Below are positions 1 to 14,213 of a stretch of 14,213 nucleotides of DNA, piece by piece. The stretch is taken from UHGV virus genome UHGV-0136963. One strand, written 5' to 3'. How positions within the stretch are numbered: the stretch's first letter is position 1; each line of letters starts with the position of its first letter. A model generated the notes under the pieces. It worked only from the letters and a program-made list of their open reading frames with translations. It had not been told where the DNA came from and did no database searches. The position numbers and the translations under genes are program-made. Source of the DNA: a virus.

Positions 1-1761
1 AAATCGATACTGGAAAAAACTCTAACTCGGTGGCCAGTTTTTGTTGACCACTTCACAGCGACATGCGTCTTCTTCGATCAGGACAGCAAGCAATATGACC
101 GCTCTGATGCTATGTGGGCTATGGAAATGTTCTCCATGACGCCCAAAGCGTTCGAGGCTGAATACCCTGATTCCATCGCGGCAAGCCTTTCTCGTGATGA
201 CACTGGCACTCAATATGACTGGTCAACGCCTGATGCCATCTATGTTGGACGCTACTACGAAGTTCGCATAGAGAAGGTGAAGCTCACGGCGTGGCGCAAC
301 CCTGTTAGCGGAGAAACGGCAATCTATGATGAAGAGCAAATCAAAGATATTGTCGACGAGCTGACCGATGGTGCATTCGAACTGATTGGCGAGCGAACGG
401 TGAAGAAGCGCCGCGTTTATTGCGGTCTTCTGTCTGGCGCTGAATGGCTGGAAGAACCGAAGCGTATTCCGGGTGAACATATTCCTCTCATCCCGGTATA
501 TGGGCGTCGCTCATTTGTTGATAATCAGGAGCGAATCGAAGGCCACGCAGCAAAAGCGATGGATGCACAGCGTCTTGAGAACCTGATGGTTTCCATGATT
601 GCAGATAACGCTACTCATGCTGGCGGTGATGGCCTTCCTGTAGTTGATGTTGACATGATTCCTGGTCCTCTCGCCACTCATTGGGCGGAGCGCAACAAAA
701 AGCGCCCGGCGTTCCTGCCGATGATCAGTCTGAAAAACAAAAACGGAGATATTACTGCGCAGGCTCAGGTCAGCAGTTATACACCTCCGACACAAATGCC
801 TCCTGCTCTTGCCGGGCTATTGCAGTACACCGGAACGGCTATTCAGCAAATTACAGGTGCGTCGCAGCTTGAGAACATGCCGAGCAACGTCGCTAACGAT
901 ACCGTTGATAGCATCTTTAACCGGATGGATACGCAGTCCTATATCTACATGGACAACATGGCTAAATCTATGCGTCGCGCTGGCGTTGTGTGGCTTTCTA
1001 TGGCGCGTGAAGTCTATGGCAGCGATACGCCGATGCGTATCGTTAATGAGGACGGCAGCGATGACGTGGCGCTGATGACTGGTGAAGTGGTTGACCGTCA
1101 GACAGGGCAGGTTATCGCGCTTAACGACCTTTCGCAGGGTAACTATGAAGTGACTGTCGATGTCGGTCAGTCGTTCGCTACTCGCCGTGATGCAACGGTT
1201 AAGTCGTTACTTTCCATGCTGGCACTTATCCCACCAGGAACGCCGAAGCACGACCTTGTATCGTCGATGATTCTCGACAATATGGACGGCGAAGGGATGG
1301 ACGACCTGAAAGAATACAACCGCAATCAGTTGCTTCTGTCTGGCGTTATCAAGCCGAGAACGCCTGAAGAACAGCAGATGGTTGAACAGGCGAAACAACA
1401 ACAGGCCAGTCAGCCAGATCCGGCTATGGTTGCAGCGCAAGGTCAGCTTCTTGCTGGTCAGGCTGAATTGCAGAAAGCGCAGAACGAACAGGCAGCCATT
1501 CAGGTTAAAGCATTCCAGGCACAGACTGATGCTCAGGTTGCAGCGGCAAATGTTGTGAAAATACTCGCATCTGCCGATAGTCAGCAGAAATCTGATATCC
1601 GCGAGGCTCTGAAACTGCTCGGACAGTTCCAGCAACAGCAAGGAGACAATGCCCGTGCTGATGCAGAGCTTGTCCTGAAAAGTCAGGCACAGGGCCATGC
1701 GCAGCGCATGGACATCAGCAGCATCCTGCAAAAATCAACTCAGCAACAACCACAGCAGTAA
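1..1761 (+). CDS. Portal protein, homologue of P22 gene 1; 5'-partial (frame is open from base 1, so roughly the first 140 codons lie upstream of the window)
   Basis: Frame 1 has no stop from position 1 to the TAA at 1759-1761. The C-terminal ~130 aa are a Q/A-rich helical segment ending ...QKSTQQQPQQ, consistent with the long C-terminal helical barrel of P22-like portals. It lies immediately upstream of the scaffold and coat genes, as in P22. Confidence 0.93.
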   Translation, partial: KSILEKTLTRWPVFVDHFTATCVFFDQDSKQYDRSDAMWAMEMFSMTPKAFEAEYPDSIAASLSRDDTGTQYDWSTPDAIYVGRYYEVRIEKVKLTAWRNPVSGETAIYDEEQIKDIVDELTDGAFELIGERTVKKRRVYCGLLSGAEWLEEPKRIPGEHIPLIPVYGRRSFVDNQERIEGHAAKAMDAQRLENLMVSMIADNATHAGGDGLPVVDVDMIPGPLATHWAERNKKRPAFLPMISLKNKNGDITAQAQVSSYTPPTQMPPALAGLLQYTGTAIQQITGASQLENMPSNVANDTVDSIFNRMDTQSYIYMDNMAKSMRRAGVVWLSMAREVYGSDTPMRIVNEDGSDDVALMTGEVVDRQTGQVIALNDLSQGNYEVTVDVGQSFATRRDATVKSLLSMLALIPPGTPKHDLVSSMILDNMDGEGMDDLKEYNRNQLLLSGVIKPRTPEEQQMVEQAKQQQASQPDPAMVAAQGQLLAGQAELQKAQNEQAAIQVKAFQAQTDAQVAAANVVKILASADSQQKSDIREALKLLGQFQQQQGDNARADAELVLKSQAQGHAQRMDISSILQKSTQQQPQQ

Positions 1762-1851
1762 TTAACCCATAACGTGCAATGGCTGTCTTTATGAGGCCTG
1801 GCACCCTATTGCCTTCCGATGGGCTGAACATCGAGTAAACAGGGGTAACAA

Positions 1852-2745
1852 ATGGACCAGATGGCAGAAAACACACCAGAAGTTGAAATAGAAACCGACG
1901 CGTCAGAGCAGATTCCTGATGATGTCGAACTGGCTGAAGAAGTCGAAACAGAAGATGGCAGTGAGTCATCCGGCAATGATGCAGAGGAAGCTACTGAAAC
2001 TGATGACGACGAATCAGAACAGGATTTCTACTTTGGTGACGAAAAGCTGGATTCGCCAACCAGCGAAGATGGCGCAGAGCATGGACTGGTAAAACACCTG
2101 CGCAAGACGATTAAAGAGAAAGACCGTGAGCTGAAAGAGCTGATGCGTCAGTCTCAGAAACCCGTCGAGCAGCAGCCGGTAATCACTCAACCACCGCGAA
2201 TGCCAAAACTGGATGATGAGGACATCGGTTTCGATGAAGAAATCTACCAGCAACGCATGGCTAAGTGGGCAGAGGATAACGGCAAGTACCAGCAACAGGA
2301 GATGGCTCGCAAGCAGAAGGAGCATGAGCTTCAGGCTGCCTATCAAGAGCGATTATCCAAATATCAGCAACGTGTTAAGGCTCTCAAAGTTCCTGGCTAT
2401 CAGGAAGCTGAGCAGGCCGTACTCGAGGAAATTCCCATCGAGACACAAAACGCGATCCTGTTTGAGTCAGAGAAGCCGGAAATCGTTGTTCTGGCGCTCG
2501 GTCGCAACGCTGAACTGCGCAAGCAACTGGCAGAAGCTACCAACCCCGTAGCAATTGGTCGTCTGCTGGAACGTATCGAATCGAAGGCCAGAATCATGCC
2601 AAAAGCAAAAACCACGGCAGCCACAACCCCGACAGTTAAGGGGAGCAACGGCGCAGTAATCAATAACCTCGACAAACTGAAAGCCAAGGCGCTGGAAACT
2701 GGTGACTGGACGCCGTATTTCGCCGCTAAAAAGGCAAAAAAATAA
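1852..2745 (+). CDS. Scaffolding protein, homologue of P22 gene 8
   Basis: 297 aa, between portal and coat (P22 gp8 is about 303 aa). RBS AGGGG sits a few nt upstream of the ATG. The N-terminal ~80 aa are extremely acidic, the middle is helical and charged, and the C-terminus is basic (…TGDWTPYFAAKKAKK), typical of a coat-binding scaffold tail. Primary sequence differs from P22 gp8 as I recall it, so the call rests on position and architecture. Confidence 0.8.
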   Translation: MDQMAENTPEVEIETDASEQIPDDVELAEEVETEDGSESSGNDAEEATETDDDESEQDFYFGDEKLDSPTSEDGAEHGLVKHLRKTIKEKDRELKELMRQSQKPVEQQPVITQPPRMPKLDDEDIGFDEEIYQQRMAKWAEDNGKYQQQEMARKQKEHELQAAYQERLSKYQQRVKALKVPGYQEAEQAVLEEIPIETQNAILFESEKPEIVVLALGRNAELRKQLAEATNPVAIGRLLERIESKARIMPKAKTTAATTPTVKGSNGAVINNLDKLKAKALETGDWTPYFAAKKAKK

Positions 2746-2763
2746 CCTATCGGAGCATTAAGC

Positions 2764-4017
2764 ATGGCTAACCAATTAGCAAAAGACCTTGAAATCATGT
2801 TCGAAAACTACGTTGAAGGCTTTGAGGCCGCCTGCGTAGTTTCCCGTAACGCTAAAAAATTCCGTCCCGGTGATACAGCAATGCAGAGGGCAGGTGATGT
2901 TCTGTATCGTCCGCAGCATTACCACATGAACATTGAGGAAGGCCTAGACCTCAGCGGAAAAACGCCAACAGCACTTGTTCAGCGCCTTGTTCCTTCTGTG
3001 TTCAAGGAGCCGAAAAACATTCTGTACACTCTGGATGCGCGTGAAATGCGTGACCCGGAACATAAAACTGAAGCTGGTCGCGCCGCAGGTATGCGCCTTG
3101 CTGCACAGATTGACTCTGACCTGATTTCCATGGTCACGCAGCGTGCTACTAACGTGATCACAATGGCTGACTCAACCACAGGTACACAGGGCCGTGATTT
3201 GTGGAACTGTGCGGCAGGTATTGATGCCACTATGACGGCGATTGGTGTACCGCAGGGTATCAATCGTCGCTCTTTCTGGAACCCCTTCAACTACAAAGAC
3301 CTTGCTGGCGAGCTTGGTCACCGTGCCTATGCTCAGGGCGCAACCCTGACAGCATACGAAAAAGCGCAGATCCCTCCGGTTGCGTCCTTCGATAGCTACA
3401 AGACCGATATTTCTGGTCGTGTTCCGAAGGGTACAGCAACTTCCCTGACGCTGGCGGCTGAACCTGCGCACAAGGTTGAAGCGAAAGATGCCAACGATAT
3501 GCCAGTGGATAACCGACAGGGGACTATTACGGTATCTGCATCTGGGTTGCAGGTTGGCGATGCGTTCACCATTGCTGGCGTGAATTCTGTACACCAGATC
3601 ACCAAAGACACCACCGGGCAGCCGCAGGTATTCCGCGTTCTGGCAGTAAGCGGAACGACAGTAACTATCTCCCCGAAAATTCTGCCGCCTGACAACGCGG
3701 ATGTCGCCAGCCGACCATATGCAAACGTTGATGCTAACGCGGCAAATGGTGCAGCAATTACCATTCTCAACAAAAATGCCGCACCGGCTAACCTATTCTG
3801 GGCTGATGGTTCTGTTGAGCTGATGTACGGCAAACTGGCGTTCCCGACTGGTCAGGGTCCACAGGTAATGACAGCAACCACCGAGCAGGGCGCTACGCTG
3901 ATCATGTCTTACGCCTTCGACCACATCAAAGGCGTAACCACTGCTCGTTTCACCACTCTGTACGGTTGCTCTGTACTTGTTCCTGAATATACGGGCATCG
4001 TTATTGCCGGGCAGTAA
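2764..4017 (+). CDS. Major capsid (coat) protein, homologue of P22 gene 5
   Basis: 417 aa, directly after the scaffold gene, with GGAG 9 nt upstream of the ATG. Size matches P22-like coat proteins (P22 430 aa, Sf6 about 423 aa from memory). A strong terminator hairpin follows. Sequence is diverged from P22 coat, so the call is positional and size-based. Confidence 0.88.
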   Translation: MANQLAKDLEIMFENYVEGFEAACVVSRNAKKFRPGDTAMQRAGDVLYRPQHYHMNIEEGLDLSGKTPTALVQRLVPSVFKEPKNILYTLDAREMRDPEHKTEAGRAAGMRLAAQIDSDLISMVTQRATNVITMADSTTGTQGRDLWNCAAGIDATMTAIGVPQGINRRSFWNPFNYKDLAGELGHRAYAQGATLTAYEKAQIPPVASFDSYKTDISGRVPKGTATSLTLAAEPAHKVEAKDANDMPVDNRQGTITVSASGLQVGDAFTIAGVNSVHQITKDTTGQPQVFRVLAVSGTTVTISPKILPPDNADVASRPYANVDANAANGAAITILNKNAAPANLFWADGSVELMYGKLAFPTGQGPQVMTATTEQGATLIMSYAFDHIKGVTTARFTTLYGCSVLVPEYTGIVIAGQ

Positions 4018-4021
4018 TTTT

Positions 4022-4047
4022 GGTGGGGCTTCGGCCCCATTTTTATT
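4022..4047 (+). terminator. Rho-independent terminator or attenuator directly after the coat gene
   Basis: GGGGC (4025-4029), loop TTCG (4030-4033), GCCCC (4034-4038), followed by ATTTTTATT. A perfect 5-bp GC stem with a UUCG tetraloop and a U-tract, starting 8 nt after the coat stop codon. Confidence 0.75.
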
Positions 4048-4058
4048 GGGAGAAGACA

Positions 4059-4247
4059 ATGGCACGAACAATGCTCTATAAGCCTGGCAACATGATCACC
4101 TGTGGTCAGTTTGCTGTCGATTACATCATTGTTGATGACGAAGAAGTTAAATCTCACCTGAAAAAAGGCTGGGTAAAAACTCCTGAAGAAACCGCAACGA
4201 AGCAAAAAGTGGCTAAGGCGGAAGAAGATGGCGAAAACGAAGGGTGA
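4059..4247 (+). CDS. Small hypothetical protein (62 aa) between coat and the gp4 homologue
   Basis: ATG at 4059 is preceded by GGGAGAAG. The ORF ends at a TGA overlapping the first 20 nt of the next gene. The ORF-track start at 4020 is a TTG inside the terminator hairpin and is unlikely. An extra small gene at this position is what I recall for Sf6-like phages; I do not recognise the product. Confidence 0.5.
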   Translation: MARTMLYKPGNMITCGQFAVDYIIVDDEEVKSHLKKGWVKTPEETATKQKVAKAEEDGENEG

Positions 4248-4689
4248 TCTCGTTCTTAAGGCTTTACGAAAAGCCGGGCTGTATTCCAATGCCACGTTGA
4301 CAGATGCCTACCCTCAGGCAATTGAAGATGCCATTAATGACCTCGAAGACATGATGGCAGCATGGCAGGCGAAAGGTATCGAGCTTGGGTATCAGTTTGC
4401 TGATACAGAAAACGGCATCATGCCGTTACCTGACGATGATTCAGGTATCCCTGCATGGGCAAATGATGGCGTCGCTTTGAAACTCGCTGTGCAAGTGTGC
4501 ATGGATAACGTCATTCAGCCGTCAGACGCTCTCCTTACCGCTGCTGACAGTGCATATCAGACAATCTGTATCGCTTTAACCAAAATACCACCACTTGAGC
4601 GGCGAAATGACATGCCTCGCGGTAGTGGTAACAAAAGCGCGTTTACGTGGAATCGGTTTTACATCGAGAAAGATGATCCGAGTACGTGA
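4228..4689 (+). CDS. Head completion / tail accessory factor, homologue of P22 gene 4
   Basis: 153 aa (P22 gp4 about 166 aa). N-terminus MAKTKGDLVLKALRKAG...ATLTDAYPQAIEDAINDLEDMMAAW resembles the P22 gp4 N-terminus as I recall it, and the position before the gp10 homologue is conserved. Confidence 0.85.
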   Translation: MAKTKGDLVLKALRKAGLYSNATLTDAYPQAIEDAINDLEDMMAAWQAKGIELGYQFADTENGIMPLPDDDSGIPAWANDGVALKLAVQVCMDNVIQPSDALLTAADSAYQTICIALTKIPPLERRNDMPRGSGNKSAFTWNRFYIEKDDPST

Positions 4690-4698
4690 GGTGAATAA

Positions 4699-6117
4699 AT
4701 GCCGATTCAGCAACTTCCGCTTATGAAAGGTGTCGGCAAAGACTTTCGAAACGCTGACTATATCGACTATCTGCCAGTGAATATGCTGGCTACACCCAAA
4801 GAAATACTCAACAGCAGCGGATATCTTCGCTCATTCCCGGGCATTGCCAAACGTTCTGATGTGAATGGTGTATCGCGCGGTGTCGAGTACAACATGGCGC
4901 AGAATGCTGTTTATCGCGTTTGCGGTGGCAAGTTGTATAAGGGAGAAAGCGAGGTCGGTGATGTTGCCGGAAGTGGTCGCGTATCAATGGCGCATGGTCG
5001 AACATCTCAGGCTGTAGGCGTTAATGGTCAACTGGTCGAGTATCGCTATGATGGCGCGGTTAAAACAGTCTCAAACTGGCCTACTGATAGCGGATTCACG
5101 CAGTATGAGTTAGGCTCGGTCCGCGACATTACGCGCTTACGTGGGCGTTATGCGTGGTCAAAAGACGGAACTGATTCATGGTTTATCACTGACCTTGAAG
5201 ACGAATCGCATCCTGACCGCTACAGCGCACAATATCGCGCAGAATCGCAGCCGGACGGCATCATCGGCATAGGTACATGGCGAGACTTCATCGTCTGCTT
5301 TGGTTCATCGACGATTGAATATTTTTCCCTGACTGGGGCAACCACCGTTGGTGCTGCTTTGTATGTCGCACAGCCATCACTGATGGTGCAAAAAGGCATC
5401 GCCGGAACTTACTGCAAAACGCCGTTTGCTGACTCGTATGCGTTCATCAGCAATCCGGCAACAGGTGCGCCGTCTGTATACATCATCGGCTCCGGTCAGG
5501 TATCACCAATCGCCAGCGCGAGCATTGAGAAAATCCTCCGCTCCTACACTGCTGATGAACTGGCTGATGGCGTGATGGAATCGTTGCGCTTTGATGCTCA
5601 TGAGTTGCTGATTATCCACCTGCCGCGCCACGTCCTAGTATATGACGCATCTTCAAGTGCCAATGGTCCGCAATGGTGTGTACTGAAAACAGGCCTGTAT
5701 GACGATGTGTACCGCGCTATCGACTTCATTTACGAAGGCAATCAGATAACGTGCGGCGATAAGCTGGAATCGGTTACCGGCAAATTGCAGTTCGATATCA
5801 GCAGTCAGTATGGTCTTCAACAGGAACACCAGCTGTTTACTCCGTTGTTCAAAGCGGATAACGCCAGATGCTTCGATCTGGAGGTGGAATCATCGACGGG
5901 TGTTGCTCAGTACGCTGACCGCCTTTTTCTCTCTGCAACCACTGACGGCATCAATTACGGGCGTGAGCAGATGATTGAGCAGAATGAACCGTTCGTTTAC
6001 GACAAACGCGTTTTGTGGAAGCGTGTCGGGCGAATAAGGAAAAATGTCGGCTTCAAATTGCGCGTTATCACTAAGTCACCTGTCACTCTCTCAGGCTGCC
6101 AGATAAGGATTGAGTAA
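4699..6117 (+). CDS. Head completion / tail accessory factor, homologue of P22 gene 10
   Basis: 472 aa, the same length as P22 gp10. N-terminus [49 protein letters not shown] and C-terminus ...[16 protein letters not shown] closely match P22 gp10 as recalled. Confidence 0.93.
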
Positions 6118-6965
6118 TGGCGGATTCGAATCTCAATGTGCCGGTAATCATTCAGGCTACACGGCTCGACACATCAGTCCTTCCACGCAATATCTTCTCG
6201 CAGTCGTATCTGCTTTACGTTATCGCACAGGGCACTGATGTTGGTAACGTGGCTAACAAGGCCAACGAGGCCGGACAGGGCGCTTATGATGCACAAGTCA
6301 GGAACGATGAGCAGGATGTGATTCTCGCTGACCATGAGCAGCGAATTTCTGCTGCAGAAGCAACGCTTGTTAATCATGAGGAGCGAATCAGCCAGGCAGA
6401 ATCAACTCTTCAGGAACATGAAACACGAATCACTCAGAATGAAAGCGATATTGCGTCGCTTGATACCAGAGTTCAGTCGCTGGAGTCGCAGGTTTCAGAT
6501 CATGAAACGCGCATTGATGCTCTGGAGTATGCAACCACACGCAAGAAGTCAGAGGTTGTTTACTCTGGCGTATCAGTAACCATCCCGACAGCGCCGACCA
6601 ACCTTGTTAGCCTGCTGAAAACGCTCACGCCGTCATCCGGGACGTTGGCACCATTCTTCGACACTGTTAACAACAAGATGGTTGTGTTCAACGAGAACAA
6701 AACCTTGTTCTTCAAGCTGTCGATCGTCGGGACGTGGCCCAGCGGAACCGCCAACAGGTCAATGCAGCTAACCTTTCCCGGCTCTGTTCCTGACACACTG
6801 GTAAGCAGTCGCAACTCTGCTACAACAACCGATAACATCCTGTTAGCTACGTTCTTCAGCGTGGATAAAGACGGCTTTCTTGCCACAAATGGCAGCACGT
6901 TAACCATTCAGTCTAATGGTGCGGCGTTTACTGCCACAACCATCAAAATCATTGCGGAGCAGTAA
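6117..6965 (+). CDS. Tail needle (cell-envelope-penetrating plug), homologue of P22 gene 26, long form with a C-terminal knob
   Basis: N-terminus [43 protein letters not shown]...[20 protein letters not shown] is almost identical to the P22 gp26 N-terminal portal-plug domain, followed by HExRI heptad repeats. At 282 aa it is longer than P22 gp26 (233 aa) and matches the Sf6-type needle length. The start overlaps the gp10 stop (TAATG). Confidence 0.95.
6329..6540 (+). repeat. In-frame 42-bp (14-codon) periodic coding repeat within the tail needle coiled coil
   Basis: The motif CATGA(G/A)..CG(A/C)AT recurs at about 6333, 6375, 6417 and 6501, i.e. 42 bp or a multiple apart, encoding DHEQRIS / NHEERIS / EHETRIT / (LDTRV) / DHETRID. 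This is a coding heptad repeat, not a CRISPR or satellite. Confidence 0.7.
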
Positions 6966-7420
6966 TGATTCAGTTCAAACCAACGCGAAATATCGACCTG
7001 ATCGAAGCAGTCGGAAATCACCCTGACATTATTGCCGGAAGCAACAACGGTGATGGATACGACTACAAACCTGAATGCCGTTACTTTGAGGTGAACGTGC
7101 ACGGGCAGTTCGGCGGCATTGTTTACTATCAGGAGATTCAGCCGCTGACATTCGATTGCCACGCCATGTACCTGCCAGAGATTCGCGGCTTCAGCAAGGA
7201 AATCGGGCTGGCGTTCTGGCGATACATTCTGACTAACACCACCGTTCAGTGCGTCACATCGTTCGCCGCACGCAAATTCCGCCACGGGCAGATTTACTGC
7301 GCAATGATTGGCCTTAAGCGTGTAGGAACCATCAAGAAATACTTCAAAGGCGTGGATGACGTGACTTTTTACAGCGCCACACGCGAAGAACTAATCGACT
7401 TCCTGAATCACGGGAGATAG
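6965..7420 (+). CDS. Homologue of P22 gene 14 (virion or ejection-associated protein)
   Basis: 151 aa between the tail needle and gp7 homologues, the position gene 14 occupies in P22. The start overlaps the tail-needle stop (TAATG). Assigned by position; I do not recall the P22 gp14 sequence well enough to align it. Confidence 0.7.
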   Translation: MIQFKPTRNIDLIEAVGNHPDIIAGSNNGDGYDYKPECRYFEVNVHGQFGGIVYYQEIQPLTFDCHAMYLPEIRGFSKEIGLAFWRYILTNTTVQCVTSFAARKFRHGQIYCAMIGLKRVGTIKKYFKGVDDVTFYSATREELIDFLNHGR

Positions 7421-7422
7421 CC

Positions 7423-8115
7423 ATGTTATATGCATTTAAGCTGGGCAGAAAACTGCGCGGCGAGGAACCTTATTGCCCTGAAAAGGGTGGGAAAGGTGGC
7501 AGTTCTGATAAAAGCGCAAAGTATGCCGCAGAAGCTCAGAAGTATGCAGCAGACCTGCAAAATCAGCAGTGGCAGACGATCATGAAAAACCTTGCTCCGT
7601 TCACGCCTCTTGCGGATCAGTATGTTAACCAGCTTCAGAACCTTTCCAGTTTAGAAGGTCAGGGGCAGGCACTTAATCAGTATTACAACTCTCAGCAGTA
7701 TAAAGACCTTGCAGGTCAGGCTCGTTACCAGAGTCTTGCTGCTGCGGAGGCTACGGGAGGACTTGGTTCGACAGCCACAAGCAATCAACTGGCTACGATC
7801 GCGCCGACTCTAGGTCAGTCTTGGTTATCAAACCAGATGAGCAATTACAACAATCTGGCAAACGTTGGGCTTGGTGCTCTGCAAGGTCAGGCAAACGCCG
7901 GGCAGACGTACGCCAACAACATGAGCAGCATTGCACAGCAAAGCGCAGCTCTTGCCGCTGCTAATGCCAACAAACCATCAAGTCTTCAGACAGCAATTAG
8001 TGGCGGAACGTCTGGTGCGATTGCCGGTGCAGGTCTTGCCAGCCTTTTGGGAACATCAACACCTTGGGGCGCTGGCATTGGTGCTGGTATCGGATTGCTT
8101 GGCTCGTTGTTTTAA
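7423..8115 (+). CDS. Ejection (internal virion) protein, homologue of P22 gene 7
   Basis: 230 aa (P22 gp7 229 aa). N-terminus MLYAFKLGRKLRGEEPYCPEKGGKGGSSDKSAKYAAEAQKYAADLQNQQWQTIMKN and the glycine-rich hydrophobic C-terminus ...GAGIGAGIGLLGSLF closely match P22 gp7 as recalled. Confidence 0.93.
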   Translation: MLYAFKLGRKLRGEEPYCPEKGGKGGSSDKSAKYAAEAQKYAADLQNQQWQTIMKNLAPFTPLADQYVNQLQNLSSLEGQGQALNQYYNSQQYKDLAGQARYQSLAAAEATGGLGSTATSNQLATIAPTLGQSWLSNQMSNYNNLANVGLGALQGQANAGQTYANNMSSIAQQSAALAAANANKPSSLQTAISGGTSGAIAGAGLASLLGTSTPWGAGIGAGIGLLGSLF

Positions 8116-8124
8116 GGGGTAATC

Positions 8125-9513
8125 ATGGCTACTTGGCAAGGATCAAATGGCGGATTGTTGGCTGGTATCGGCGGCGTCAACTCAAACGCTCCGAGCGTAA
8201 ATGACATCGGCAACACGCTTCAGCTTATCAGGCAGAACAATGATATTGAGCGTTCAGGCGCTAACAATGTTGGGCTGACAGCTTTGCAAGGTCTTTCTGG
8301 TATTGCGGGTGTTTTTCAGCAGGAAAAGCAGGCTCAGCGGCAGAAAGAATTTCAGCAGGCATACGCTAATGCTTATGCGTCTGGTGATCGCGGTGCTTTG
8401 CGTCAGTTGGCTACTCAATATCCAGACCAGATTGAATCTGTTCGTAAAGGCATGGGATTCATTGATGAAGACCAGCGCAATTCTATCGGCACCTTAGCGG
8501 CTGGCGCCCGCCTTGCATCATCGTCTCCAGAAGCAATGCAATCATGGCTGCAAAACAACGCCAAGGAACTGACTCGCGTCGGTGTTGACCCTAATAACGT
8601 TGCTCAGATGTATCAGCAGAACCCTTCAGGATTTGGTGAGTTTGTTGATCACCTTGGAATGGCTGCTCTTGGTCCGATTGATTACTTCAATGTTCAGGAC
8701 AAGATGGCTGGTCGTGAGATTGATCGCGGAAAACTTGCAGAGACAATCCGCAGCAATCAGGCTGGCGAGGCGCTAACAGCACGAGGCCAGAACATCACGA
8801 TGCGCGGTCAGGACTTATCTGCTTCTACTGCGCGACGCGGGCAGGATTTGGCAATGCAGCGAGCGTCAACAAGAGGAACCGCTGGGAATGATGAGCGTAC
8901 AGTTCAGTTATCAGATGGCAGAACTGTAACGGTAGGCGGTAAACTTCACGGCGCTGGTGCTAATGCGTTCTACGAAGGCATCGACAACGAGGGGAATATG
9001 GTTCGCGTTCCTGCCAGTTCAATCGCAGCGCCTGCAACATCGTCTGCATCAGCACAAAACTATGCCATGAAGAAGGATATCGACGCGATCGCAAATGCAG
9101 ACGCTTCTGCTCTCGATTTCATGACAGGAATGACAGGCGGTGCAGGTAATCCAGCAATTGGTGCTGATGTTCGCAGCCGATTAACAGGAAAAGAGCAGCG
9201 CCAGTTATATAACTCAGCACAACGTATTCAGGGCAGAATGCAGAATCAGGGTGTGGCGGCAGCAAGGGACATGGGTGCCAGTGGTATTAACACCGTTGCA
9301 GAAGCGAAGATGTATTTTCAGGGGATGCCGCAGGTTGACTATTCAAGCCCGGAGGCTATGCAGCAGTCGATTCGTGAAATTCAGGAATACACCAACAATT
9401 ACAACCAACAATATAACGTTAATGTTGGTAAATCTCAGCGGAAGCAATCTCAACCTGCACAGGTATCACAGCCAGCAGCCAGCAGTAACTTTTCTTCACT
9501 ATGGGGTGATTAA
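8125..9513 (+). CDS. Ejection (internal virion) protein, homologue of P22 gene 20
   Basis: 462 aa (P22 gp20 about 471 aa), between the gp7 and gp16 homologues. AGGGG RBS before the ATG. Q/N/G-rich, low-complexity composition typical of P22-like ejection proteins. Confidence 0.85.
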
Positions 9514-11792
9514 TGGCTAAAGCATGGAAAGATGTTATCGCCTCTCCACAGTATCAGGCGTTAGCACCAGAACAAAAAGCGCAGGCTCAGGAGCAATACT
9601 TCAATGAAGTCGTGGCCCCGCAAGCCGGAGAAAATGCAGAGCAGGCAAAACAAGCGTTTTACTCTGCTTACCCTAGAGGTCTGCTAGAGAAGGGTAATAT
9701 TGACATTCACAATCGGCCTGTTGTTAAAAACTCTGATGGCAGCATTAGCACTGTGCGGAGCATGTCTACCAATATAGATGGTAGAGAGGTGCTGATTCCT
9801 ACCGTTAGTGATGATGGTCGCATTATGTCTGATGATGAAGCTATTGATAACTTCATGAGGACGGGAAAGCATCTTGGTATGTTCGACAATCCTGACGATG
9901 CCACTGCATATGCGGAGAGTCTGCACAACCAGCAAGCTGATGAATACCTCCCTAGGAAGAATCAAGCTACACAACAGCCTGTACAGCAAAGTACACAGGC
10001 AGCGCCACAGCAGCAAGGAGGTTTCATTTCCGACCTTGGCAATGCCGCGGCTGAAACTGGTCGCGGACTGGTGCAGGCTGGCGTGAACGTGGCAAACATA
10101 CCTGCATCAGTTGCCGATGCTGTAACAAGTGCGGCTGCATGGGCTGGCGGTAAACTCGGCATTGGCGATGGTACATATCAACCAGCGCCACGAGTAACAA
10201 CGCAGGGATTAGAGCAGGACTTTGGCCTTCAGCAAGGCGCGCTGACTCCACAAACGACAGAGGGCAGGGTGTTTGCTGAAGCATTGCCTTACCTCACTCC
10301 TGCTGGCGTTGAGAGAGCGGCGGTACAGGCACCAACACTTGCTGGTCGAATTGCTCAGGGGGCAACACGACTTCTCGCAGAAAACGCAGTTGGATCACTT
10401 GCTGCAAATAGTGCGAAAGATGATGCGGAAGCCCTCGCCACCGATTTAGGCGTTGGTGTGCTGGCTGGCGGTGCTATTAACGCTGCCGGAAGTGGATTAG
10501 GTGCTGCTTATCGTGGCGTTCGTGGTGCTATTGCGCCAGAAGCGCAGCAGGCTATCAGATTTGCAGAGCGTGAAGGTGTTCCTCTGCACACCACAGACCT
10601 GTTACAACCCACTTCCCGCGTCGGAAAAATGGCGCAGACTACAGCAGAAAATATCCCTCTTGCTGGCACAAGCGGAATGAGAGCAACGCAACAGGAAGCG
10701 AGAAGCCAGCTGGTGCAGAGATTTGCCGATAAATTCGGTGAGTATGATCCAGCGGTTGTTATTGACAGCCTTAAAGCGAAAACATCAGGAATTCGTCGTG
10801 CCGCCGGTAATCGACTGGAGCAGGTTCAGAATGCTATGGCCGGAGTAAACATTCAGCCTGCGCGAGCAATTCAGCAGATTGATACAGAAATATCTAACCT
10901 GCAGAAGCTTGGTAAGGTTGCTGATAACGAGACTATTTCAAAACTTCAGTCATATCGTGATGAGCTTGTTCGCAATGCTGGCCCTGATGGTCCTGTAAAT
11001 CTGGATTTGAAGCAATTAAGCGACCTGCGCAGCCAGTTCAGAATGGACGTGAAGGGTGAACGACCAGTGTTACCAAACCGTTCCGATGCCGCCATTCAGC
11101 GCGTTTACAAGGCAATGACTGACGATATCAATGGTGCCATTGGTCAGAATCTTGGCAACGATACTCTCCGTAAATATCAGCAGGCCAATGCCGTCTACGC
11201 TGACGAAGCGGCGAAACTAAAGAATACCAGGCTGAAGAATGTTCTCATGAAAGGCGACCTGACGCCGGAAGTTGTCAACAACATGCTATTCAGCAAGAAC
11301 AAATCGGAAATTAAGACGCTGTATAACTCAGTTGGTCGTGTTGGCAGGGCGCAAATGCGCAATGGCATCATTGGAAAGGCGATGGAGAAATCAGGCGGAT
11401 CCCCTGACCAGTTCCTTCGACAGCTTAACATCCTGCAAAACCAGACTGGCATCACATTTAAAGGTCAGGACGCTGCTTATCTGAAAGGATTGAAAAATTA
11501 CCTTCAGTCCACGCAGCAGGCTGCAAAAGCGGCAGTAACAACACCAACAGGGCAGCAAACCATCCCGTTCATTATCGGATATGGGACAGCAATGAACCCT
11601 GCGACAACTGGCGCAGCGGTAAGCTACGGACTTCTTACTCGCGCCTATGAGAGCGAGCCATTCAGAAATGCAATGCTCCGAATGGCAAACACCCCACGCG
11701 GATCAACAGCGTTCGAGAAAGCCATGCAGCAGGCACAAAAGGCCATTAACGCCCTGACTCAGGGTACCAAGTCTGATGCGCTGTCAGAATAG
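9513..11792 (+). CDS. Ejection (DNA-transfer) protein, homologue of P22 gene 16, with about 150 extra residues
   Basis: 759 aa. The central and C-terminal parts (…NIPASVADAVTSAAAWAGGKLGIGDGTYQPAPR…GALTPQTTEGR…IPLAGTSGMRATQQEAR…TDDINGAIGQ…KGDLTPEVVNNMLFSKNKSE…GSPDQFLRQLNILQNQTGITFKG…) match P22 gp16 as recalled. P22 gp16 is about 609 aa from memory. The start overlaps the gp20 stop (TAATG). Confidence 0.9.
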   Translation: MAKAWKDVIASPQYQALAPEQKAQAQEQYFNEVVAPQAGENAEQAKQAFYSAYPRGLLEKGNIDIHNRPVVKNSDGSISTVRSMSTNIDGREVLIPTVSDDGRIMSDDEAIDNFMRTGKHLGMFDNPDDATAYAESLHNQQADEYLPRKNQATQQPVQQSTQAAPQQQGGFISDLGNAAAETGRGLVQAGVNVANIPASVADAVTSAAAWAGGKLGIGDGTYQPAPRVTTQGLEQDFGLQQGALTPQTTEGRVFAEALPYLTPAGVERAAVQAPTLAGRIAQGATRLLAENAVGSLAANSAKDDAEALATDLGVGVLAGGAINAAGSGLGAAYRGVRGAIAPEAQQAIRFAEREGVPLHTTDLLQPTSRVGKMAQTTAENIPLAGTSGMRATQQEARSQLVQRFADKFGEYDPAVVIDSLKAKTSGIRRAAGNRLEQVQNAMAGVNIQPARAIQQIDTEISNLQKLGKVADNETISKLQSYRDELVRNAGPDGPVNLDLKQLSDLRSQFRMDVKGERPVLPNRSDAAIQRVYKAMTDDINGAIGQNLGNDTLRKYQQANAVYADEAAKLKNTRLKNVLMKGDLTPEVVNNMLFSKNKSEIKTLYNSVGRVGRAQMRNGIIGKAMEKSGGSPDQFLRQLNILQNQTGITFKGQDAAYLKGLKNYLQSTQQAAKAAVTTPTGQQTIPFIIGYGTAMNPATTGAAVSYGLLTRAYESEPFRNAMLRMANTPRGSTAFEKAMQQAQKAINALTQGTKSDALSE

Positions 11793-11881
11793 CTTCGCAA
11801 ACACCAGGAACGTGCAAAAACCAAATATGTAGAACGCAATATTCAGCATATCTCTTTGCATAAATCCTCCGTAACTGATGG

Positions 11882-12145
11882 TTAACTGCTGTCTTTTTTA
11901 TATAGCTCCTTGAGCGTATCAAAGACAATTTTCTTAACCATATCAGATTGTTGTTCTGCCATACGCTCTGCATCGTCAATGTAAACTGATGCAGAGCTTT
12001 GTTTAGCCAATGATTCTTCAATCGCTGCAATTATCTCTGAGTTCAGCGACCTGTTATTCATTTTCGCGCGCTGTTTAATTTTCGCGTGGAGTTCATGCGG
12101 AAGTCTCAAGTGAAACTGCGCCTCGTCGTATTTGCTGTACATCAT
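11882..12145 (-). CDS. mnt: Mnt-like ribbon-helix-helix transcriptional repressor (Arc/Mnt family)
   Basis: The 87-aa product MMYSKYDEAQFHLRLPHELHAKIKQRAKMNNRSLNSEIIAAIEESLAKQSSASVYIDDAERMAEQQSDMVKKIVFDTLKELYKKDSS aligns along its length with P22 Mnt as recalled (…HFNFRMPMEVREKLKFRAEANGRSMNSELLQIVQDAL…NDAERLADEQSELVKKMVFDTLKDLYKKTT). I chose the ATGATG start at 12145/12142 because GGTGAGG lies 5-6 nt upstream; the ORF-track start at 12175 would add 10 residues with no RBS. Confidence 0.9.
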   Translation of the reverse strand: MMYSKYDEAQFHLRLPHELHAKIKQRAKMNNRSLNSEIIAAIEESLAKQSSASVYIDDAERMAEQQSDMVKKIVFDTLKELYKKDSS

Positions 12146-12263
12146 TGATGCCTCACCAGTTGGGTGGAATGGCATCGTAACCTACTGGATAAATACTCAA
12201 TAGTACCATTTCGGTATGCAATCACATCATGGTTGCATCATATCATTCGTCTGGAGCAATGAA
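12146..12263. promoter_or_regulatory. Divergent intergenic region between mnt and the tailspike gene; candidate mnt promoter and operator
   Basis: 118-bp non-coding gap between divergently oriented genes. It contains the inverted repeat ATGCAA (12216-12221) / TTGCAT (12233-12238) with an 11-bp spacer, each arm reading as a TTGCAT -35-like hexamer on one strand. On the minus strand TGgTACTAT is an extended -10-like element about 50 nt upstream of the mnt start. Also present: CCAGT (12156-12160) / ACTGG (12184-12188), and TACT-N4-AGTA (12194-12205). No experimental support. Confidence 0.35.
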
Positions 12264-14162
12264 ATGTCAGATATCACCGCAAATGTTGTGGTAAGCATGC
12301 CTTCGCAACTCTTCACTATGGCTCGTTCTTTTAAAGCCGTAGCCAATGGTAAAATTTATATCGGTAAAATTGACACTGACCCGGAAAACCCTGAAAACCA
12401 GATTCAGGTTTATGTGGAGAACGAAGACGGCTCTCACGTTCCTGTTTCGCAACCAATCATCATTAACGCTGCTGGTTACCCTGTATATAACGGACAGATT
12501 GCCAAGTTCGTAACTGTGCAAGGCCACTCTATGGCTGTTTATGATGCATATGGTGTGCAGCAGTTCTATTTTCCTAATTTACTGAAGTATGATCCTGATC
12601 AGTTGCGAGTTGATATTTCATCAAACAATGGAGATAAGATTGTCGGGAGCACATATGGTGGTAATGTTTATAGCGATTACATGCCATATGTATACAAAAA
12701 ATCTGGAGATATGTCAGTTGGCGGAGTGATATTAAATAAATACGAATCATTCAAATATTCAGATGGAATGTATTATTCATATATAGGAAATATACCAATT
12801 GATGGTTATATAGTTACGCCAGGCTCCACTCCAGACTCAACATGGGTGTGTGTTGGATTTCTTTCTGGGTATTCAGTAGATGACCCAAGAAATTACGGAG
12901 CAAAACCATGCGATCCAACATTCGACAGCTCTGATGCACTGGATTTGTGGAGAGATAGTATAATCAAGAGAAATCGCAAAACAACTTACTCAACTGATAG
13001 AGAAGATCCAAACATGTACAATTTGGGTGGCACTGTTTTTGATATGACTCAGGGCACTTACTATGTATCACGTCCATTTACAATAACAGATTGTTTGAAT
13101 TTTTCTATGTTGAATCCATCTCTTTTAGCAATTGGAGCATTTCCTTCGACAGAACCTGTTCTAGATTTTCGTAAAGTTAACGGCTCTAGACCAATTGAAA
13201 ACATCGTGGTATTTAATCCTAATATCGATGCTAACTGGAAAGCTTCCGGCGCAATTAGGGTTTATGATGACTTTTTGAAAGTGACTATATGGGGAGGTCT
13301 ACTGACAAGATACTTGCGTTATGGATTAAAGACTGAACCAAATGACTCACAGCCACATGAATTAAATGTGGGAAAAACTTTTATATTTCAACAACCAGAT
13401 TGGAATGCTTCTTACCCAACTAACGTTACAGATGGCGTTGGCTTGGATATCAACAACTATGATAATAACTTCTCAGACTTAGTTATTGGTTCACAGTATG
13501 CAGATGTTATGTATTTACGTAAAGGAGCAAATTCTTTTAGTAATAGTCATTTTTATCCAAATCAGTCTGCTGATAGCGCAAAAGGGCGTGTGGTTATAAT
13601 GTCTAACGCAGATATTTTTGTTGGATGCTATTTCGATGGATGCTTAATTGAATCAAACTCAGACGGTGCGAGATTTACTGTTAGCTCATGCAACTGGTTA
13701 GTACCTGAACATGGAGTTGCAATAAATCTTATATCAAATCCGTTTCAGGTTAAGATAACAGGTTGCAGATTCCGTAATACAACGGGAACTGTAATGCCAC
13801 TTAGCGTTATTCGCATGAAGACCATAGCAGAAGGAAGATCATCCAGGCCAGATATAAGAAACAACTTTTCTGAAGGTTGCCAATCTATATCAACATCAGG
13901 TAGGGAGTTTTTCACACTAACAGTATCTGGATCGTCAAGGGTTGTAACAAGAGCAATACCAGATCAATTCCAGCCAGCAAATACAGTATCAATTCAGGAG
14001 GTAGCAGCAAACACAAACGATGATACATGGCTTATAAAAGCTAGATTAATTAGTTCAAGCCAAGTAAGGATCAGGCCATACAATATGGATACAGGGTGGT
14101 CATCACAAGCAACGTATTCAGGTCAGGTTGTACTTATTTATAATTCAGAAAATGACATGTAA
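12264..14162 (+). CDS. Tailspike protein, homologue of P22 gene 9; P22-like head-binding domain plus a divergent receptor-binding domain
   Basis: 632 aa. N-terminus [97 protein letters not shown]…LKYDPDQ is near-identical to the P22 tailspike head-binding domain ([40 protein letters not shown]…). Start placed at the ATG at 12264 (GGAG 8 nt upstream) rather than the ORF-track ATG at 12216. The remainder does not resemble the P22 receptor-binding domain. Confidence 0.93.
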
Positions 14163-14184
14163 ATCAGCTCAGAAATAATTGGAT

Positions 14185-14213
14185 ACACCACCATATGTTA
14201 TGGTGGTGTGTTT
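14185..14213 (+). terminator. Rho-independent terminator at the end of the late operon
   Basis: ACACCACCAT (14185-14194), loop ATGTT, ATGGTGGTGT (14200-14209), followed by GTTT at the window edge. A perfect 10-bp stem 23 nt after the tailspike stop. The U-tract is cut off by the end of the window. Confidence 0.6.

Follow-up and report, generated by a model that had tools for sequence, protein, structure and literature searches.

We analyzed a 14,213-nucleotide stretch of the virus genome UHGV-0136963 (hereafter the window, meaning the whole stretch of DNA that was analyzed, numbered from its first base). Pfam and PHROG matches of the upstream open reading frames (ORFs) identified it as that half of a P22-like (Lederbergvirus-type) prophage which encodes the virion structure. 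The subject of this work is the tailspike gene at its 3′ end, in which a head-binding domain of the P22 family is joined to a receptor module of a different sequence family. The features of the gene and its immediate surroundings are listed below.

12264-14162, plus strand: tailspike gene, 632 codons and a stop (from the ORF list and translation; the RefSeq homologue has the same start)
12264-12602, plus strand: head-binding (particle-attachment) domain, residues 1-113; Pfam PF09008; 42.8% GC
12586-12609, plus strand: recombination joint at the KYDPDQ hinge, where homology to all other P22-like tailspikes stops
12603-12902, plus strand: neck/linker module, residues ~114-213; separately exchangeable; 35% GC; phrog_22294
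12873-13874, plus strand: predicted right-handed parallel beta-helix, residues ~204-537, with an N-terminal capping helix at ~223-237; presumed glycan-binding and glycan-cleaving domain
13899-14159, plus strand: predicted C-terminal beta-sandwich, residues ~546-632 (model strands 432-512 correspond to protein residues 546-626)
12253-12256, plus strand: putative ribosome-binding site GGAG, 7 nt 5′ of the ATG at 12264, read from the sequence
11882-12175, minus strand: Mnt/Arc-type repressor gene of an immI-like region (Pfam Arc, E = 1e-14; Repressor_Mnt, E = 4e-14); 41% GC
14185-14213, no strand assigned: terminator-like hairpin ACACCACCAT-atgtt-ATGGTGGTGT followed by GTTT, read by eye and cut by the end of the window

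The gene starts at the ATG at 12264. A longer ORF beginning at the ATG at 12216 was rejected: the GGAG precedes 12264, the homologues start with M(S/T)DITANV, and the RefSeq homologue WP_023156183.1, a 632-amino-acid product annotated as 'phage head-binding domain-containing protein', starts at the equivalent of 12264.

The Pfam family Head_binding (PF09008) spanned residues 1-113 with full profile coverage (E = 5e-66). Over this region the protein was identical to Sf6 gp14 at 102 of 113 positions (90%) and to P22 gp9 at 83 of 112 (74%). A megablast comparison with phages showed that the corresponding DNA is 83-93% identical to that of IME10, Sf101, HK620, CUS-3, and Sf6, with IME10 at 93%. 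These comparisons place the domain in the P22 type, nearest to the Sf6/IME10/HK620 group. A previous sequence-only reading of the window had described this part as near-identical to the N-terminal domain of the P22 tailspike as far as KYDPDQ; the position of the joint was right, and the near-identity to P22 was not, since P22 stands at 74% and Sf6 at 90%. The knob domain of the tail needle encoded at 6117-6965 is of the Sf6 type (PF16532, E = 5e-117), in keeping with a head-binding domain that is Sf6-like rather than P22-like.

The joint falls directly after KYDPDQ; it is sharp, and three DNA comparisons agreed on it. When positions 12216-14213 were used as the megablast query, 28 phage records matched only query positions 1-394, and the matches ended at window positions 12601-12609. 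The 15 best-matching E. coli prophage backbones, which have at least 79% of the window in common at 94-97% identity, aligned from position 56 to positions 12575-12608 and then stopped. The CUS-3 record has a 'boundary sequence' (bsq1) annotated beneath the same head-binding match. At the protein level, a phmmer search against the Protein Data Bank (PDB) matched the full-length chains of the Sf6 (7sg7) and P22 (2xc1, 8tvr) tailspikes to residues 1-119 only. A junction near position 12600, at the head-binding linker, had been expected and was found. The same is true of the domain swap at the hinge, by which a P22-family adaptor is joined to a part that has no detectable sequence relation to the P22/Sf6 beta-helix, and of the statement that the protein past the joint does not resemble the P22 receptor-binding domain: the PDB matches end at residue 119.

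The fold of the receptor part was assessed with an AlphaFold2 monomer model of residues 115-632 built with 14 family sequences. The mean predicted local distance difference test score (pLDDT) was 79.8 and the predicted template modeling score (pTM) was 0.75. The model was confident from residue ~204 onward and poor in its first 89 residues, with the neck (residues 115-203) below a pLDDT of 50 in the monomer. It consisted of a capping helix, a long series of short strands, and a C-terminal beta-sandwich at ~546-626. The question of whether the receptor part is a beta-helix was thus answered by a predicted structure that is a right-handed parallel beta-helix from residue ~204, as in P22-like tailspikes and the pectate-lyase-like superfamily. 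The structural neighbors of this beta-helix shared at most 16% identity with it, and the best match among the viral predicted structures in BFVD was the tail protein of Aeromonas phage 2_D05, at 32% identity. The C-terminal domain is strongly conserved in the family, with the motifs NDDTW and RPYNM. The earlier description of an unrelated receptor-binding domain stood as far as the sequence is concerned and fell for the fold, because the model predicts the same general beta-helix architecture as that of the P22 receptor domain. Residues ~214-632 matched no Pfam or PHROG v4 family. The only Pfam match past residue 113, to HTTM (residues 225-294, E = 0.11), was at chance level and was rejected; the label 'colanic acid degradation' of phrog_8280 was set aside as uninformative on the receptor domain, since the match covers residues 1-131 only.

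The mosaic has more joints than the one at the hinge. The 779-position profile phrog_22294, built from other tailspikes, matched residues 19-213 and no further. Tailspikes of Kuttervirus, Dompiswa, and Dickeya phages matched residues ~117-228 at 35-44% identity, and family members with other adaptors converged only from DDPRNYGA, at residue ~205. On these alignments, residues ~114-213 are best described as a separate neck module. Further along the protein, a second tailspike allele was found in E. coli fECg99.1, an OX18 host (L010:3665-5560; 99% identical to P0002). Over residues 1-233 and ~581-606 its sequence is virtually that of the window protein, and between them the identity is only ~55%, a pattern that we interpret as an intragenic replacement of the beta-helix core.

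Relatives of the receptor module are few, and they are found in diverse phages. An exhaustive phmmer search over 1.84 billion cluster representatives returned 36 proteins at E <= 1e-3, 10 of which were at E <= 1e-30, and a second, profile-based word-index protein search added just 3 proteins. The clusters P0001 and P0002, which contain this receptor domain, have 63 and 38 member sequences, and SRR19528574 is one of the public data sets in which the domain occurs. Homologues at 50-74% identity sit behind PF09008, PF03906 (T7 tail fiber N-terminus), or PF18668 (TSP1/Gp66 N-terminus). The receptor module occurred in four backbones, namely P22-like prophages, Kayfunavirus P762 (at the gp17 position, 70% identity), a 71.6-kb N4-like contig with the N4 gp1 and gp2 families, and a 47-kb contig with a tape-measure gene. 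The chromosomal contexts of related copies were sbcB-dacD in 2014C-4587, ybhB-bioA in fECg99.1, and the vicinity of a formate/nitrite transporter-family gene in L009, while the prophages of Ec40743 and PM22 occupy integration sites other than that of 2014C-4587. As judged by these comparisons, the receptor module represents a small, uncharacterized, AT-rich family that has moved horizontally among P22-like, T7-like, N4/G7C-like, and siphovirus backbones. The same exchange pattern has been documented for O-antigen-specific tailspikes of E. coli phages (PMC10408124). Three records that bear the names of Salmonella, Escherichia O104, and Listeria phages (OR850875.1, OR844702.1, and OR846963.1) contained one and the same homologue of the receptor domain, and it scored identically in all of them (53.9% identity), which suggests that their host labels are unreliable or that one phage was deposited under several names.

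Receptor-domain DNA was present in 8 of 5426 complete E. coli genomes, seven times at 99.4% identity or more and once as the fECg99.1 allele. Between galF and gnd, 2014C-4587 has an O-antigen cluster that is a six-gene block of 29% GC and is found in 12 of the 5426 genomes. Two of those 12, JNE170426 and JNE181771, were published as Shiga toxin-producing E. coli (STEC) OX18:H2 and OX18:H19 (PMC8084502), and the cluster was assigned to OX18 because of them; 2014C-4587 and ECC-1470 likewise count among the OX18 strains. In the surroundings of the cluster, gne, ugd, and a neighboring NAD-dependent epimerase gene hint at an O-unit with GalNAc and perhaps a uronic acid. Six of the eight tailspike carriers have the OX18 cluster (hypergeometric p = 7e-16); conversely, six of the 12 OX18 genomes carry the tailspike family. 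The OX18-positive carriers span different H types and sequence types (STs), at least two of them. The receptor of the window tailspike is probably the O-antigen of the E. coli provisional serogroup OX18. The sequence-only reading had anticipated a different receptor, probably an O-antigen or a capsule, and the association with the OX18 cluster supports the former.

In two prophage backbones (L001:19621-20607 and L009:11957-12943), a convergent Acyl_transf_3 gene of 328 amino acids and 29.7% GC comes after the tailspike gene; behind the fECg99.1 allele (L010) it is absent. The window stops 51 nt past the tailspike stop codon, within the hairpin, so the position of the acyltransferase lies outside it. 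The linked acyltransferase probably acetylates the O-antigen in lysogenic conversion, and its convergent placement next to the tailspike is the arrangement expected of an O-antigen-modifying gene that blocks superinfection. A gene for O-antigen modification behind the tailspike has been described for Lederbergviruses (PMC10408124).

In the mechanism that we propose, residues 1-113 would anchor the protein on the tail in the manner of the Sf6 and P22 head-binding domains, and residues ~114-213 would form the neck. By analogy with the tailspikes of P22, Sf6, and HK620, the protein is expected to be a homotrimer. The beta-helix part (residues ~204-632, including the C-terminal beta-sandwich) would bind and most likely cleave the O-antigen repeats of the host, and this cleavage would open the particle a path to the outer membrane. 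The receptor module would be swapped by recombination at the joints between adaptor and receptor domain, here the YDPDQ hinge (12603-12608). Several polar residues, H365, E366, Q376, D400, N401, H429, D458, R470, and D567, are invariant down to ~25% identity, and among them E366, D400, and D458 are candidate catalytic carboxylates; the chemistry may be either hydrolysis or beta-elimination. As a whole, the reading that this is a modular P22-like prophage tailspike with a beta-helix receptor module most likely directed at the OX18 O-antigen has, in our estimate, a probability of about 0.7.

Several points weigh against it. The carrier genomes are phylogenetically non-independent, so that the p value of 7e-16 overstates the evidence, and the OX18 link was read from these genomes rather than from the window's own host. 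The carrier PM22 lacks the OX18 cluster and has a rare cluster of the vioA/glycerol-phosphate type (2 of 5426 genomes), and the carrier Ec40743 has no full-length match to either the OX18 or the PM22 cluster. The window protein and its close homologues had no glycosidase or lyase match in Pfam; pectate-lyase-like PF12708 gave only sub-threshold matches, in the two distant homologues P0016 and P0022, and none for the window protein. No chemical structure for the OX18 O-antigen emerged from the literature searched. To explain PM22 and Ec40743, one may suppose that their O-antigen was replaced once the lysogen had formed, that their prophages are relics, or that the specificity is broader. With other O-antigen clusters in two of the eight carriers, these exceptions also favor an explanation in which the receptor domain targets another surface polysaccharide (for instance, a capsule, colanic acid, or a shared core or modified epitope), and the link to OX18 stems from a common ancestry or ecology of the lysogens. 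Most carriers belong to B1-type STEC lineages of bovine or human origin, and tailspike subtypes found in prophages of many serogroups have been taken as specific for something other than the O-antigen (PMC10408124). We nonetheless consider this explanation rather unlikely: the enrichment is extreme (6/8 carriers against 12/5426 genomes), the association extends across at least two H types and STs, and related copies lie in at least three chromosomal contexts. It is also established that P22-like phages with a single tailspike depend on the O-antigen. In PM22 (L008, 2790424-2794232), galF is followed almost directly by yegH and the colanic-acid (wca) operon appears to be missing there, which argues against colanic acid as the receptor in that strain. 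A further possibility, that the beta-helix is an adhesin that binds its glycan without depolymerizing it, is quite improbable. In characterized podovirus tailspikes of this architecture the beta-helix domain is enzymatic; this is established for the tailspikes of P22, Sf6, HK620, CUS-3, Det7, and CBA120, which are structural neighbors here, and the invariance of E366, D400, D458, H365, and H429 down to ~25% identity is typical of an active site.

A different question is where the AT-rich part came from. Bases 1-11792 have 50.7% GC, with every upstream 1560-nt window at 46.8% or more, and bases 12603-14162 have 37.4% GC and 27.4% GC at third codon positions (GC3). The by-eye estimate of high-30s against about 50% for the rest of the operon was accurate, and the profile is not uniform. 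The shift had been placed at about 12600, and here the computation disagreed: the best single change point over 9000-14162 is at ~11816, where the gp16-like gene ends and the Mnt/Arc-type immI-like region starts. The Mnt region has 41.2% GC and the head-binding part 42.8%. At the joint within the gene, the step in total GC is weak (42.8 versus 37.4%, Fisher p = 0.065) and that at third codon positions is clearer (41.6 versus 27.4%, p = 0.004). The contrast between the 3′ part and the operon, together with the presence of Aeromonas phage proteins among the distant homologues, would favor the view that this part was imported recently, from a low-GC organism that lies outside the pool of enterobacterial phages. 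We regard such an import as very unlikely. The fall in GC begins already at ~11816, and the close homologues (50-100% identity) all reside in prophages of E. coli or in backbones of the coliphage type. There, too, the module is rich in AT (41% GC in Kayfunavirus P762, against 50-52% for its neighbors), so its low GC is better understood as a long-standing property of the cassette than as a sign of recent import; the adjacent acyltransferase gene (29.7%) and the OX18 O-antigen cluster (29.3%) are low as well. The whole fused gene, including the head-binding part, is 99.4-100% identical between the window and the prophages L001 and L009, the structural genes of which are only 91-97% identical to those of the window and which differ in the gp16 region. 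A fused gene at least 99.4% identical amid diverged backbones implies that the fusion predates the window, and the claim of a recent acquisition from a lower-GC source found no support. The differences between gene copies are mostly synonymous (6 synonymous versus 2-3 nonsynonymous), and the comparison suggests that the fused gene recently spread between backbones as a unit. One may go further and see the AT-rich block as a mobile 'serotype cassette' made up of the neck, the beta-helix, and, in related prophages, the convergent acyltransferase, with the beta-helix representing an undescribed family of OX18-specific O-antigen depolymerases. The two alleles from OX18 hosts (the window type, with the acyltransferase in related prophages, and the fECg99.1/P0002 type, with a replaced core and no acyltransferase) would then recognize unmodified versus phage-acetylated O-antigen, in a phage-phage arms race over one receptor. 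This scenario is speculative and we give it little credence.

The tailspike gene is the final gene of a P22-type late operon, 3′ of the ejection-protein genes and the immI-like region. On the plus strand the large ORFs encode, in order, the P22 portal, scaffold, coat, gp4, gp10, the Sf6-type needle knob, DUF2824, gp7, gp20, and a gp16-like protein; DUF2824 (PF11039) is a family without assigned function that lies between the tail-needle and ejection-protein genes. This order agrees with the RefSeq annotation of homologous prophages. The gp16-like DNA-transfer protein (9513-11792) has 759 amino acids, against 614-665 in related prophages, and its residues 257-478 form a transglycosylase-like segment (phrog_29864); its RefSeq relatives are labeled 'lytic transglycosylase domain-containing protein'. 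The gp16-like region is one block that varies between otherwise similar prophages. Directly 3′ of the tailspike stop, the hairpin has a perfect 10-bp stem (ACACCACCAT/ATGGTGGTGT) and a 5-nt loop, and it is probably a bidirectional terminator common to the tailspike gene and a convergent downstream gene. A consensus promoter and terminator scan of 11700-14213 found sites no more numerous than in shuffles; the hairpin was not called in it because its T run is cut off at the end of the window.

Modular tailspikes that keep a conserved anchor of the P22 type belong to textbook knowledge. The closest known systems are the Lederbergvirus endorhamnosidases Sf6 gp14 and P22 gp9, which have the same head-binding domain, YDPDQ hinge, gene position, and plan of adaptor, beta-helix, and C-terminal domain. 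They differ in that there is no sequence similarity past residue ~119, and the window protein has an extra neck of ~90 residues and a different receptor. The combination of a conserved anchor with a transferred receptor domain is shared with the modular O-antigen tailspikes of Lederberg-, Kayfuna-, Gamaleya-, and Kutterviruses (PMC10408124), and also with those of HK620 and of CUS-3, the latter with its annotated boundary sequences. In the framework of that study the type of a prophage tailspike tracks the O-serogroup of the host, with an optional O-antigen-modification gene behind it, as appears to be the case here; the study covers neither the receptor-domain subtype of the window nor OX18 (0 occurrences). 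Among pectin-lyase-fold depolymerases, ORF18 of Geobacillus virus E2 (7chu), Det7 gp208 (6f7k), and CBA120 TSP2 (5w6p) are only 12-15% identical to the window protein, so that their substrates and mechanisms are not transferable to it. The closest receptor domain in a cultured phage is that of Escherichia phage P762 (QUR34677.1), with 70% amino acid identity over 95% of residues 116-632, and it too is AT-rich relative to its own genome. P762 differs from the window in being a lytic phage with a T7-type N-terminal adaptor on this protein, which is annotated only as hypothetical; no host serotype is on record for the phage, and the literature searched yielded no paper on it.

Among Shiga toxin-producing E. 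coli, OX18 is an emerging serogroup; it has caused fatal hemolytic uremic syndrome and is untypable with commercial O antisera (PMC8084502). If the proposed specificity is correct, an OX18-binding tailspike could be used as a reagent for typing or capture, and it could guide the choice of lytic phages with the same receptor domain, such as Kayfunavirus P762 and the N4-like phage. The interest of the window tailspike is modest and mainly practical, and it resides in the likely specificity rather than in the architecture. Compared with the systems above, the architecture was already known; what is new is a receptor-domain family without a Pfam or PHROG entry and, probably, a new serogroup specificity.
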